Positions 27,001 through 33,000 of a stretch of DNA of 64,000 nt are shown piece after piece. Position 1 is the first letter of the stretch. The number at the start of each line of letters is the position of its first letter. The position numbers and the translations under genes are program-made. The stretch covers positions 10,228 to 74,227 of the forward strand of contig JAUYBI010000041.1 in assembly GCA_030693145.1 (NCBI GenBank), written 5' to 3'. The notes under the pieces are model-generated. The model saw only the letters and a list, made by a program, of their open reading frames with translations. It made no database searches and was not told where the DNA came from. The stretch comes from Candidatus Omnitrophota bacterium (GTDB lineage Bacteria > Omnitrophota > Gorgyraeia > Gygaellales > Profunditerraquicolaceae).

Positions 27001-30000
27001 CCAAGGTTATTAAGGAAATTAAGCATCGCCTCAGCCGTCCAGAGATTGCCTCTATAGAGCAGATGATTGTTATCTTGGATTATTTGGCTAAACAAGATAA
27101 GCCTTTTGCCCGTAATATAGTAAATAAATTAAAGGATTATTTTTCGGTTACAGGATGGCAGATGCTTTTAGACGCTATAGAGTATCATCTTCTTGATTTT
27201 GAATCTGATTCTTCCTCTTCTTTTAAGTTAGGATTTGTCGGCTTAGGCAGGATGGGGGAGGGTATGGTCTTAATGTTATTACAGAGCGGATTTAAAGTAA
27301 TGGTTTTTGACAAAAAACTGGAAGCAATTGAAAGAGTCGTAGTATTAGGAGCTGAGAGAGCAACATCTTTAAAAGACCTTGTGAATAGATTAGAAGAGCA
27401 GGCTCCTAAGATAGTTTGGCTAATGATTCCCGCGGGTAAGCCGGTTGAAGGAAGCATAAATGAGCTTTTAGGATTTTTAAGCAAAGGCGATATTATAATT
27501 GATGCCGGTAATTCCAATCCGCGGGATTCGCGAAGAAGGGCAGAGATTACAAAAGAAAAAGGTATATATTTCTTTGATGTGGGTACAAGCGGAGGCATTG
27601 AAGGAGCAGAGAAAGGATTGTCTTTTTCAATAGGCGCAGATAAAAATATCTATCAAAAGATTGAAACGATCATTAAAGCTCAGGCATGCGAGAGAGGAAT
27701 TAGCTTTATCCCCTATAGCGGCATGGGGCACTTAGTTAAGATGGTGCACAATTCAATGGAATATGCAATTATGCAGGCGATTGCAGAGAGCTTAGCTTTG
27801 ATTTATACGTCCTTGAGAAAAGATAAGGGATTGGATGAATTAAATGCAATTAAAGAGATTGAAAAAATATCCGGGGAGTGGGCTAAGGATGAAGTTGTCG
27901 GTTCCTATTTTTTTGATCTACTTAGCCGCGGATTAAAAGACGCTCAGCGTTTTATGCAGGTAGGAGATAGGATCGCAGGAGGAGAATCCGGTAATTGGGG
28001 ATTAAGAGAAGCAAGGAGATTAAAGGTATTTACGCCGCTTTTAGGTGTTGCAGTTAATGAAAGATTTAGAATATCTCATCCAGAGTACTTTTCAAGTAAT
28101 GTAATATCTTATCTTAACCGTTCTTATAAATTCGTTAAATTACAGGATATGTTATCCAATGCCGATAAGCAAAAGGATGATAAAACTACAAATGATCGCA
28201 ATTTTATCGAAAGTATTCAGTATCTTTTAGCTTACACTTTGGAACAAATTTTATCTGAAGGCATAGAGGTAATTTATACTGCCTTAAGGCAAGATTACAA
28301 TTTAACTGAAAAAGAATCGGCTAAACATTTAGGTGGTATTTTAGAAGCTTGGTGCCAGGGGACGATTATTCGCTCATTAATGTTAGAAAGATTAACTCAG
28401 AAGATTTTAAGCGGAGTTTCCTTAGATAACCTTAAGAGCGTTCCATTAAAAGACAATTATGAAGAAATTCTAGAGAAAGCTAATGCGCTTGAGGCTCCGC
28501 TGCTCATTCTTAATATAAGTGCAAAGAAGAGGTTATTGTCAGAAGAGAATAAAGTATTCTTAAGGCAAGCCAGGGGTACCGTTGATTTATCTGAAAAATT
28601 CAGAGAGAATGAAACCGAATCATTTATGGGCAGGATTGTTTCCTATTTGCGCTGGCTTTTTGGCAGGCATCCTTATGCAGAACGGCCTCTCTCAATTATT
28701 TTAAGCGAAACATTTGGCGCGGAATTGAAATCAGTAAATAATATACATTTAGCTTCATTTAAACAGCGCCCGGAAAATTTAGCTGAAGCAGGTAAGCTGA
28801 TGTTTGAGAAAGAAGCAAAAAAGGCAATAGAAAAGAAAGGCATATTCACTGTGGCATTATCTGGCGGCAGGACGCCAAAATCCATGTTTGAACTATTAAG
28901 GAATGCTGATGTTGAATGGGGTAAAGTACACATCTTCTGGTCGGATGAGCGGCCAAGGAGGCCTGATGTCGGACAGACTAATTATGAATTAGCCCACGAG
29001 TCATTCCTTAAATATATAAATATCCCTGTAGAAAATATTCATAAAATAGATATTGAAACGCCTGAGCGCGAAGCTGAAGCTAAGCGTTATGCAGAAGAAA
29101 TGATGCATGTTTTAGGTAAAGAAATGAGTTTAGACCTTATGATTTTAGGCGTAGGCGCTGACGGACACACAATGTCTTTATTTCCTGATTCAGAAGTGTT
29201 TAATAAAGAAAAACCCGAGCCTGTGGAGTTAGTAAGCAGGAAAGATACCGGCTTTGGTTATACGATGACTTCATCAATAGTAAAACAAGCAAAGAAGGTT
29301 GTGCTTCTTCTTACGGGCGAGGAGAAGAAAGAGGTTTTAAATAGCCTTATCAAAGGAAATAGATTAATTCGTAAGTTTCCTGTAGGTATTTTAAAGGAGC
29401 TGCCAGAAGGAGTTGCCTTTGTTTTTGTGGATTTTGAGCATAACTTAGAAGATAAAGAACCGGCAGCTTTTAAGGAAAAATTGGACGGCGGCCTGTCAAA
29501 AATCAATCCAACCAAGACCGCAGCATGGAAAGAACTAAAGGCGCTTTATAGATCTAGGGGCAGGCGATCAATGCGCGCTATGTTTAAGGACCCAGGGCGT
29601 TTTGATAATTACCATATACGTTTCGAGGATATGCTCGTAGATTACTCTAAGAATTTGATTAATAAAAAGGTAATGAATGCGCTCCTTGCTTTAGCCAATG
29701 ATGTAAAACTTCCAGGTGCGATTGAAGCGATGTTTACTGGCGTTAAGATCAACGAAACTGAAGACCGCGCGGTTCTTCATACAGCCCTGAGGAATCAGTC
29801 TAATGCGCCGGTTAAAGTAGATGATAAAGATGTGATGTTAGAAGTGAATGAAGTTTTAGATCAAATGGAAAAGTTTTCAAATAAGGTTAAATCTGGCGAG
29901 TGGAAGGGTTACACCGGCAAGGCTATTACCGATATCGTTAATATCGGTATTGGCGGCTCAGATTTGGGCCCGGTGATGATTACCGAAGCCTTAAAAGCTT

Positions 30001-33000
30001 ATGCCGCGCGCGATGATTTAAAAGTTCACTTTGTCTCCAATGTGGATGGCACGCACATCGCGGAAACCTTAAAAGATCTTAATCCCGAGACCACCCTTTT
30101 CATTATTGCTTCTAAAACCTTTACTACCCAGGAAACTATGGCCAACGCTAATACAGCAAAAGAGTGGTTTATAAAAAATGCGGCAGTCAACGAGAATCGA
30201 AATCGGGATTCTGCCGCGGCGAATATGTTTGAGTTCTGGGATTGGGTAAGCGGGCGTTATTCCTCACATCTAAAACTGCATTTTGTAGCGGTTTCCACGG
30301 CGGAAAAATTAGTTGAAGAATTCGGAATTAATACCGACAATATGTTTGAATTCTGGGATTGGGTAGGCGGACGTTATTCTTCCTGGTCTGTCATCGGCCT
30401 CTCTATCGCCTGCTATATCGGTTTTGATAATTTTAAAGAATTGCTCTCCGGCGCTCATGCCATGGATCTGCACTTCAGGAATACGCCTTTTGAGAAAAAC
30501 ATTCCTGTAATCCTGGCGCTTTTAGGCGTTTGGTACAATAATTTCTTCAGAGCCCAGTCGCACGTCCTTCTGCCTTACGATCAGCATCTGCATCGTTTTG
30601 CCGCCTATTTCCAGCAGGGCGATATGGAATCAAACGGCAAGAATGTGGGTAGAGACGGCAAGCTGGTAGATTATCAGACTGGGCCGGTTGTCTGGGGCGA
30701 GCCGGGCACCAACGGCCAGCATGCCTTTTATCAATTGATTCATCAGGGCACGAAATTGATTCCTGCGGATTTTATCGCCTTTGCCCAAAGAAGCAGCCAT
30801 GAGTTTGATAAATACGAAGAGTTAAAGGCGCGCTTAGACGAACATCACAAAATATTACTTTCCAATTTCTTTGCCCAGCCGGAAGCTTTGATGAAAGGTA
30901 AAACCGTCCAAGAAGTTGAAGAAGAATTTAGAAAAGAAAATGCCAAGTTAAAAGAGAAGGGTAAACCCGAATTAAGCGAGGAAGAAATCTCTCGGCTTAC
31001 GCCTTTTAAGGTCTTTACAGGTAACCGCCCGACCAATTCTATCCTGGTTAAGAAGCTCACTCCCTATACGCTCGGTATGCTCATCGCGATGTATGAACAT
31101 AAGATTTTCGTGCAGGGCGTAATCTGGAATATCTACAGTTTTGACCAGTGGGGTGTAGAATTTGGTAAAAAGCTTGCCAAAGGCATCCTAAACTTAGACC
31201 CCGATCATTATTTGGATCAGCTTGAGCCAGGAACTGTTGTAACCGGACACGACTCCTCAACCAATGGCCTTATTAATGCTTATAAGGATATGCTGGACGG
31301 TTCTAAAGACGGCGGCAATGTTACAGAAGAAAGAGAAATTTTGTTTCAATTTAGAAAGAATCACAAAATAAGAAAATATGTAAGATATCTGATGCGATTT
31401 TGTTTCGAGCAATTTGAGGTAAGGCGAGTTGATGTCAATAGGATGATTTATATTATTTTTCAATCAGAACACAGCAGTTTTGAAGGAGTTAGAGAAGCTC
31501 TTTATGAGGCTGGTTTTAATTGGAAAAATAAGGAAAATATTTACAACAAGATTTATAGCAAATACAGTAGAGAAACAGCGCCTTTTGTAAAATACAACAT
31601 TTTAAAAGAATATATTCAGCCAAAAGGATTTGGTTCAGATTCGGTGATTATAGACATAGGTTGTGGTGATCTTGCCATCGCAAAACAGCTTATTAAGGAT
31701 ATGCGCACGCGTATCCCTAAAGACTATTTACCTACAATATATGGTATAGATTTTCCAGAGCCGCCAAAAACAACAGGGGACGATAAGATTAAATACAAAC
31801 AGCAGAATGAAAATAATGCTGGTAGGGTTACGATGGACGAAGAGGTAAAGGCCGATAGGATATGGATAATTTCCGCATTGCATCATATGCCTAAAGAAGT
31901 AATGGCTTCTATTTTAAAAGAAGCTTACCGCTTACTTAAAGCTGATGGCGAATTAATCGTGTTTGAGGACGTTGTTTTGGAATCAAAAGAACCGAAATTT
32001 AATGAAAAGAAATTAGCTAAAGGCAGGGTAAATAAGCTTTCAGAGGAAGAGCGCAGGATTGCTTTTACTATCTTTGATTGGCACGCTAATTGCGTTGTCG
32101 GTGGGCATGGTTACGTGCCTATGCCGGGAAATTATTATACAGAAAATAAATGGATTCAGGTATTTTCTGAAGCGGGATTCAGCGTAGAAGATTCAGATTA
32201 TATCGGTGTATATAAGAAAAAGTTTAGCAATTTGCCGCATTCAATCTTTATATTAAAAAAGAAAGACGGCGGTAAAACTGGAAAAGAGCTTGTCCAAAAT
32301 TTTAATAAAAGCTATGAGGAGTATTTGCAAAAAGTTGAACATGTTGAATTATCTGAATCGGTTTTGAAAGAAGTAGCCAGAAAAATAAGAAATAACCAAA
32401 AGGAAAGCAAAAACAAGATTTATGTTGTGGCAATCGACGGTAATTCAGGGGCTTTTAAGAGCACTGCCGCAAAGAAGATTGCTAGGTTAATCCGGAAATC
32501 AGGAATTAGAGCAATAGTGATTCATCGGGATTGGTTTATTGATGATCGGGATGCCAGATATGAAAGAATAGATGAAGCCCTGAAAAACAAAGAACTTATT
32601 TATAATGATGAAGAGATTTATCTACGGAAGCCCAAATTCGTTCATGAAGTATTAAGGAGTCTAAAAAGATTGAAGAGAAATTTAAACAAAGAAGTAAGGC
32701 TAAAATTTACCGAACTTTACAGTAAATACAAGGGAGGAAAATTAGTAAAGAAAGTATCCAAAAAAATCTCAAAAGGAACAGTTGTAATCATAGAGGGAAA
32801 TTACTTGTTAAAGAAAGAATGGCTTAAATATTTTGATTATAAGATTGTTATGTTGGCAAAGCCGTCGATTGGCCTTGAGCGCAGATTAAAAAGGGATTCG
32901 CATACTCACAAAGACGAAGTAAAGAAGATGTTTTTAAGGGTTAATACTCCTTCTTATTTTAAATATTTAAGGAAAGAAAAACCAGAAGTCGCGGCTAACC

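Follow-up and report, generated by a model that had tools for sequence, protein, structure and literature searches.

Giant proteins made up of many enzymes have been described from Omnitrophota. The domain list of the "Archaeovorins" includes glucose-phosphate isomerase and PGM/PMM (West-Roberts et al. 2023, bioRxiv 10.1101/2023.11.21.568195), and a "multi-enzyme metabolic cluster" class is described with a content of hexokinase, PGM, radical SAM and HEAT (2026 preprint, bioRxiv 10.64898/2026.06.07.730766). We analyzed a stretch of 64,000 nt from a Candidatus Omnitrophota bacterium (assembly GCA_030693145.1, contig JAUYBI010000041.1, positions 10,228 to 74,227 of the forward strand; hereafter the window, with positions counted from its first letter), which encodes two modules of phosphoglucose isomerase (PGI), modules B and C, the second of them carrying an insertion of 72 nt. 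Frame 3 of the forward strand has no stop codon between nt 3 and 63998 (21,332 codons) and is open at both window ends; the other two forward frames contain 1838 and 2294 stops, and the longest open reading frame (ORF) on the reverse strand reaches at most 181 aa. Both PGI modules are in-frame segments of this single stop-free frame and not separate genes, and the frame (3-63998, forward strand) encodes a giant multi-enzyme protein of at least 21,332 codons. By the length of its uninterrupted frame (more than 10,000 codons) and by the many distinct enzyme Pfams that tile the polypeptide, as compared with the published descriptions, this is an Omnitrophota-type multi-enzyme giant protein in its architecture: like the described proteins, it has a stop-free frame of over 21,000 codons tiled by PGI, PGM/PMM, hexokinase, radical SAM, methyltransferases, and HEAT. 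None of the collections searched yielded a close relative of the protein itself.

Classical PGIs of the SIS fold (PF00342; V. cholerae 3HJB, E. coli 3NBU, and the rabbit and human enzymes) are free-standing, whereas module C (29493-31307, forward strand) is one part of a polypeptide that exceeds 21,000 residues. It matches the solved PGIs over their full length at 56-61% identity (E = 1.7e-224 against 3HJB), and matches PF00342 in two pieces, profile positions 1-120 at 168.7 bits and 124-486 at 573.2 bits. Module B (24117-25907, forward strand), which lacks the insertion, matches positions 1-486 of the 486-position profile at 791 bits; both modules are full-length members of the family, far above its curated cut-off of 22 bits. 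They are the only two PGI modules within the window and lie 5.4 kb apart in the same frame. The initial annotation had described them as colinear and similar even at the nucleotide level, and the pairwise alignment bears this out (77.8% amino acid identity, and 81.6% nucleotide identity over 573 aligned codons). We propose that the insertion in module C is probably the eroded first copy of an old tandem duplication of a 117-nt segment, which later became an edge of gene conversion between B and C, in a module that has stayed functional.

Relative to module B, the nucleotide and codon alignments both place an in-frame insertion of 72 nt (24 codons) at 30195-30266 in module C. It consists of 27 nt encoding NRNRDSAAA (30195-30221, forward strand) followed by an extra copy of the 45-nt PGI signature segment (30222-30266, forward strand). 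A 45-nt duplication of this segment had been noted in the initial annotation; the duplication is real (40 of 45 nt are identical to the native copy at 30339-30383), but the insertion is 72 nt long, not 45. A repeat search returned the direct repeat 30222-30265/30339-30382 with 91% identity and a spacing of 117 nt, and the chance of a match of at least 40/45 anywhere in the window is about 2e-12. Module B has a single signature copy (24921-24965), to which the extra copy in C is identical at 41 of 45 positions. No third copy of the 45-mer occurs in the window at up to 3 mismatches.

Immediately downstream of the insertion is an intact unit of 117 nt (39 codons; 30267-30383, forward strand), delimited by the alignments to B and to other PGIs. 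In the secondary structure of the model, its first part, HLKLHFVAV (30267-30293, forward strand), is a beta-strand and its middle part (30294-30338, forward strand) a helix; its last part is the native signature with the catalytic Arg (30339-30383, forward strand), as aligned to other PGIs. At the right junction of the insertion, YSS/HLKL, the end of the unit is joined to its own start, which is the signature of a head-to-tail duplication. The left part of the insertion (AAT CGA AAT CGG GAT TCT GCC GCG GCG) is in register with the first 27 nt of the unit (CAT CTA AAA CTG CAT TTT GTA GCG GTT), and 17 of the 27 positions are identical without a gap. This match has P = 5e-6 in shuffles at the fixed register and 1.9e-4 when compared with all 21,058 in-frame 27-mers of the ORF; with the offset left free in a local alignment, the shuffle P is 0.0045. 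The left part is a decayed copy of the start of the unit, and the insertion corresponds to unit positions 1-27 and 73-117, the 45 nt of the helical middle part being absent from the upstream copy. We found no other source for the 27 nt in the window (no match at up to 3 mismatches on either strand, and none with 20/27 or more identical positions). With its head-to-tail junction and its in-register homology, the insertion reads as the remnant of a tandem segmental duplication that lacks the middle 45 nt; an intragenic duplication with an internal deletion of 45 nt accounts for every base of it, and the paralog is not needed. The duplication in module C escapes Tandem Repeats Finder, owing to its decay and its interruption.

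The two halves of the remnant have decayed unequally, with 10 differences in the 27 nt of the strand copy vs 5 in the 45 nt of the signature copy (Fisher P = 0.015). In the strand copy, all five second-position T have become G or C (L>R, L>R, F>S, V>A, V>A), and there are the further changes H>N, K>N, and H>D; read from the sequence, these substitutions turn what would be a buried beta-strand polar. The signature copy differs from the native one by four synonymous changes and a single nonsynonymous change (G>S), the latter at what we take to be the [GP] position of the PROSITE PGI signature. The synonymous distance between the extra and the native signature copies is about 0.8, as large as the dS between B and C (0.755), so that the event appears old. 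Decayed internal tandem duplications are a known source of loop insertions in enzymes, and the insertion in module C resembles them in its head-to-tail junction, its residual homology in register, its in-frame length, and its placement in a turn. Unlike them, the duplicated piece in C includes part of an active-site signature, and its two remnant halves have decayed at clearly different rates.

All of the closest relatives of module C lack the insertion, which by sequence comparison appears private to this sequence; it is not a conserved feature of the lineage, the circumstance that the initial annotation had set against its own reading. Among 5.8 billion proteins, the best relative is 71% identical and has no insertion. 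The nearest PGI relatives are fragments filling short contigs: P0002 (from a Candidatus Omnitrophica metagenome-assembled genome, 71%), P0003, and P0004. In the GTDB genomes, the best locus among the matches listed (L001, on SBBM01000005.1, labelled Planctomycetales) encodes a PGI that is 73% identical and is likewise without the insertion; this PGI takes up 580 codons (aa 617-1196) of a 13.6-kb locus that is itself one open frame, and it is the only module that L001 and the window have in common. A degenerate codon pattern for the junction (WDWV-x-GRYS-xxx-K-x-HFVA) had no match in the JGI metagenome contigs, and a query with the N-terminal region found nothing closer than 57% in metagenome contigs. 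In an exhaustive phmmer search of 1.84 billion cluster representatives with a 66-aa peptide spanning the insertion, the alignments cover the native part only. Two matches in several stretches, P0122 and P0124, proved to be repeat proteins without relation to PGI, and a further match, P0127, is a PGI with a frameshift. The hexokinase module, used as another query, retrieved only stand-alone hexokinases of about 50% identity from several phyla, and no taxonomic marker gene lies in the window.

Other insertions distinguish these modules from classical PGIs. Module C has a second private in-frame insertion of 8 codons, LNLDPDHY, near its C-terminus (31188-31211, forward strand, from the codon alignment with B), where residues 551-571 of the model have a predicted local confidence (pLDDT) below 50. 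It is not convincing as a further tandem duplication, since by an eye count it shares 10/27 nt with the following 27 nt. In addition, giant-protein PGIs share two insertions that free-standing PGIs lack, one of about 12 residues (~30792-30827) and one of about 10 residues (~30942-30971, a Lys/Glu-rich stretch). Both are also present in module B, P0002, and P0003, and only the second one is present in P0004; they are probably lineage features of a clade of giant-protein PGIs.

Sequence heterology is a barrier to gene conversion between paralogs, and the divergence between B and C likewise has a step at the indel. We counted synonymously different codons among those B/C codons that encode an identical amino acid: they make up 41% upstream of the insertion vs 25% downstream of it (Fisher P = 7.7e-4). 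The unconstrained maximum-likelihood single change point is at 30267, the first codon past the insertion (permutation P = 0.023, with the location unspecified). A change in paralog divergence at the junction is what a scar templated by the paralog would leave, and it is equally expected from a mere block to conversion. The drop in divergence suggests that B and C later underwent gene conversion over the 3′ part of the modules, in a tract that ends at the 72-nt heterology, and later conversion stopped by the heterology explains it more simply than a paralog-templated event. Along the modules, B and C form a mosaic, with 90-98% nucleotide identity and 80-95% third-position identity at 30267-30480, 30600-30750, and 31065-31155, against a background of about 55-65%; this mosaic suggests that short gene conversions have recurred between B and C.

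According to the initial annotation, the misplaced signature may compromise module C; its conservation speaks against this. The columns of the catalytic and phosphate-binding residues do not vary among 58 PGIs, C being one of them (S156, S207, K208, T209, T212, R294, Q375, E379, H410, and K559 in C numbering, which we take to correspond to S159, S209, K210, T211, T214, R272, Q353, E357, H388, and K518 of the rabbit enzyme). The dN/dS between B and C is 0.149, and purifying selection of this strength is indirect support only for PGI activity of C, which is probably retained. In a Tajima relative-rate count with L001 as outgroup, C has 37 unique replacements vs 27 in B, a difference that is not significant (chi2 = 1.56). 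An alignment of 53 free-standing PGIs has 261 columns with a conservation of 95% or more; C departs from these at 14 columns and B at 15, compared with 15-17 for three other giant-protein PGI fragments.

The location of the insertion is consistent with a tolerated change. The phmmer alignment against the PDB breaks at query 230/257, so that the site of the insertion is flanked by residues 231 and 234 in E. coli Pgi (3NBU) and by residues 255 and 258 in the V. cholerae enzyme (3HJB). In the AlphaFold model of C, the insertion (residues 235-258 in module C numbering) comes after a helix of 23 residues (213-235) and before a strand (264-267); classical PGIs have a turn of 2-3 residues at this site, where C has its 24-residue insertion. 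The phosphate-binding SKTFTT (residues 207-212) immediately precedes the N-terminal end of the same helix, so the insertion is at its far end, which from the topology of the model would be roughly 30 Å from the phosphate site; this would be a benign position. The model of C has a mean pLDDT of 77.8 and the predicted fold of a PGI, with a TM-score to 3HJB and 3NBU of 0.76 (query-normalised) and 0.83 (target-normalised). The model of B, made as a control from the same shallow alignment, behaves alike, with a mean pLDDT of 80.8 and the same core segments of low confidence, which therefore are no sign of damage in C. Confidence is lost in C alone only at its two private insertions (pLDDT 69/59/73, vs 94/94 in B). 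Module C thus looks functional, and nothing in its sequence or its predicted structure indicates that it is compromised.

The history that we consider probable would begin with an in-frame head-to-tail duplication of the 117-nt segment (beta-strand, helix, and signature loop) in module C. The upstream copy would then have lost its middle 45 nt, and its strand part would have exchanged hydrophobic residues for polar or small ones (NRNRDSAAA), with the signature part remaining almost unchanged; the outcome would be a 24-residue excursion in place of the short turn between the 23-residue helix and the next strand. The downstream copy would be the working one, the module would have kept evolving as a functional PGI, and the 72-nt heterology, having no partner in B, would later have served as an edge of B/C gene-conversion tracts. 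We infer that the duplication came first, deletion and decay next, and conversion last, and several points weigh against this history. The 27-nt homology is short and, though significant, amounts to 17/27, and an alternative register of its 3′ half scores equally. The middle 45 nt are simply absent, and a one-step insertion of 72 nt by two template switches would give an identical product. No orthologue was found by which the events could be dated or polarised. If the native signature of C was overwritten from B, the synonymous differences of the extra copy may be older than the duplication, which makes both the age estimate and the purifying selection on the insert soft. AlphaFold has low confidence in the insert (59-73), and ordinary variation of the synonymous rate along the gene could account for part of the change point. 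The initial annotation read the insertion as a scar of illegitimate recombination between B and C, in which the repair strand would copy the other paralog through ...GGRYSS and re-anneal 117 nt upstream at HLKL. The proximity of B and C in the same frame, their identity of 82% in DNA with near-identical patches, and the change point exactly at the insertion would all fit an out-of-register recombination or conversion of this kind; the extra copy also has a GGG codon as in B, where C has GGA, and it is slightly closer to B (41/45) than to C (40/45). This comparison has a single informative site, though, and one diagnostic nucleotide has no power; the product would be indistinguishable from that of an intragenic tandem duplication, and the divergence boundary is equally expected if a pre-existing heterology blocks later conversion. 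With 10/27 and 5/45 differences the event is old and its template no longer readable. An origin by duplication or recombination therefore stands, but the paralog is unnecessary and the donor cannot be told apart, and we consider the paralog-templated route rather unlikely. An artefact of assembly or sequencing, for example a chimeric join or a mis-expanded repeat, would explain why the junction was seen in no second assembly (in the pattern scan of JGI metagenome contigs). We give it almost no credence: artefactual repeats are exact, whereas the copies here show 5 differences in 45 positions and 10 in 27; the length of the insertion is divisible by three, and the 64-kb frame around it has no frameshift; and the substitutions are biologically structured, one half having changed synonymously and the other from hydrophobic to polar. 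The old age of the event, its non-identical copies, and its preserved frame all argue against such an artefact.

Two further readings concern what the insertion does to module C rather than how it arose. If it disabled the module, C would be a decaying redundant copy, with module B supplying the activity; two PGI modules in one polypeptide are indeed redundant, an aromatic-rich 15-mer in a loop could disturb folding, and C has a second private insertion and slightly more unique substitutions than B (37 vs 27). The same module has a dN/dS of 0.15, a relative-rate test that is not significant, invariant catalytic columns, no more deviations at conserved columns than B (14 vs 15) or the other giant-protein PGI fragments (15-17), and a fold retained in the model, so that we regard its loss as very unlikely. 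In the opposite direction, the extra signature segment may have been kept by selection as a new surface element, for example for contact with a neighbouring module or a partner, a reading that is compatible with an origin by duplication. The four synonymous changes against one nonsynonymous change stand out, given that nonsynonymous changes would make up 82% of random ones (P = 0.004, or 0.02 when polarised with B); the signature copy is also far less decayed than the adjoining strand copy (Fisher P as above), and the strand copy has no hydrophobic second-position T left, as expected for exposure to solvent. These numbers are tiny, however, and the synonymous differences may predate a B-to-C conversion of the native copy, which would remove the signal; no relative shares the element, and its confidence in the model is low. 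We consider selection of this kind distinctly unlikely, and return to the eroded tandem duplication in a functional PGI as the reading that best fits the module.

The surroundings of module C are marked by a tripeptide. DGG occurs 53 times in the 21,332 residues of the ORF vs 5.8 expected (9-fold), and is its most enriched tripeptide; it is never inside a Pfam-matched stretch (P = 2e-7). Many modules, among them PGM, both PGIs, hexokinase, histidine phosphatase, amidohydrolase, and OMPdecase, have it at a distance of 9-60 residues on their upstream side and of 11-40 residues on their downstream side. Module B is flanked by DGG at 24108-24116 and 25908-25916, and module C by DGG at 29484-29492 and 31308-31316; the extents that the initial annotation gave for B and C run exactly from DGG to DGG. 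Other in-frame sites on the forward strand are at 25923-25931, 34449-34457, 35802-35810, and 41976-41984. After its LDGG, module C begins with LSKINP..., and free-standing PGIs begin with MLPSINP.... At the nucleotide level, GACGGCGG encodes DGG at 30 of the 53 sites, and all 30 occurrences of this octamer in the window are in the ORF frame, with none on the other strand. GAC is used at 36 of the 53 sites (68%) vs 23% ORF-wide (P = 4e-12), and GGC at 37 of the 53 vs 31% (P = 1e-8). A translated Shine-Dalgarno-like GGAGG, as for internal initiation, does not account for DGG, since the first Gly codon is GGA at only 8/53 sites and the preferred word is GACGGCGG. An extended context, RSARLDGG, recurs at 50316-50342, 50907-50933, and 54579-54605, with RSTRFDGG at 51885-51911, in the Pfam-poor 3′ part of the window and with the conserved nucleotides CGCTCAGCGCGCCTTGACGG; the repetition suggests either that some bracket sites form a subfamily or that linkers were duplicated recently.

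Other giant-protein PGIs have different flanks. The open frame of L001 has no DGG; instead, SSSP[V/I] occurs in it nine times (20-fold enriched; for example at aa 611, 1200, 1358, 1484, 1804, 2646, 3434, and 3510), including directly before and directly after the PGI module, and P0003 has SSP on both sides of its PGI. This suggests that bracket motifs are lineage-specific, DGG in the window and SSSP[V/I] in L001. Missing information on cleavage points has hindered the splitting of giant proteins for analysis, and C39 and S8 peptidase domains have been noted in giant proteins (West-Roberts et al., bioRxiv 10.1101/2023.11.21.568195). The word "DGG" is absent from the text of both giant-gene papers (bioRxiv 10.1101/2023.11.21.568195 and bioRxiv 10.64898/2026.06.07.730766). 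DGG is a candidate signal for the punctuation or the processing of a polyprotein, and we tentatively raise the possibility, which we hold to be less probable than its negation, that PGI C is one of about 50 polyprotein cassettes, that DGG (preferentially GACGGCGG) brackets each enzyme module where its free-standing homologues have their natural N- and C-termini, as a signal for cutting or joining, that PGI C is released as an isoenzyme of about 605 residues beside PGI B, and that the punctuation differs between lineages. In such a polyprotein, selection could have kept the extra signature loop as a surface element.

Scanned against Pfam in pieces of 1,000 residues, the giant ORF has about 30 different enzyme domains in series. 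They include B12-binding/radical SAM, DegT aminotransferase, APS kinase, PHP, CofD, PGM/PMM I-IV, PGI (module B), a shikimate-DH-like N domain, 6-phosphogluconate dehydrogenase, 6-phosphogluconolactonase/glucosamine-6-P isomerase, PGI (module C), methyltransferases, PRK/uridine-kinase, ARMT1-like phosphatase, hexokinase, histidine phosphatase, amidohydrolase, OMPdecase/HUMPS, SIS, PEMT, and HEAT repeats. The ORF has 10 hydrophobic 19-mers by Kyte-Doolittle alone. Its coding strand is purine-rich throughout the window (GC skew about +0.2, AT skew about +0.1). Internal paralogous segments occur at 8472-10019 and 17028-18608 (aa 2824-3339 and 5676-6202, 43-53% identity) and at 53145-54548 and 57165-58580 (aa 17715-18182 and 19055-19526, 26-33% identity), and a repeat of 34 residues with 88% identity, which includes a DGG site, is found at 12519-12620 and 15753-15854.

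By itself, the insertion matters little: it is a private and old remnant of an in-frame micro-duplication, of a kind common among loop insertions in proteins, and would be an ordinary evolutionary scar in a functional-looking PGI of a known kind of giant protein rather than the mark of a broken gene. It does provide a small and clean example of how the modules of a giant gene may evolve, by local duplication, erosion, and the polar rewriting of a redundant strand, and of concerted evolution between paralogous modules that halts at an indel. The context is worth more than the insertion: complete metabolic enzymes follow one another in a single frame exceeding 21,000 codons, and a strongly enriched DGG/GACGGCGG, specific to frame and strand, separates them; this candidate punctuation motif would make the question of how giant proteins are cleaved directly testable by proteomics.

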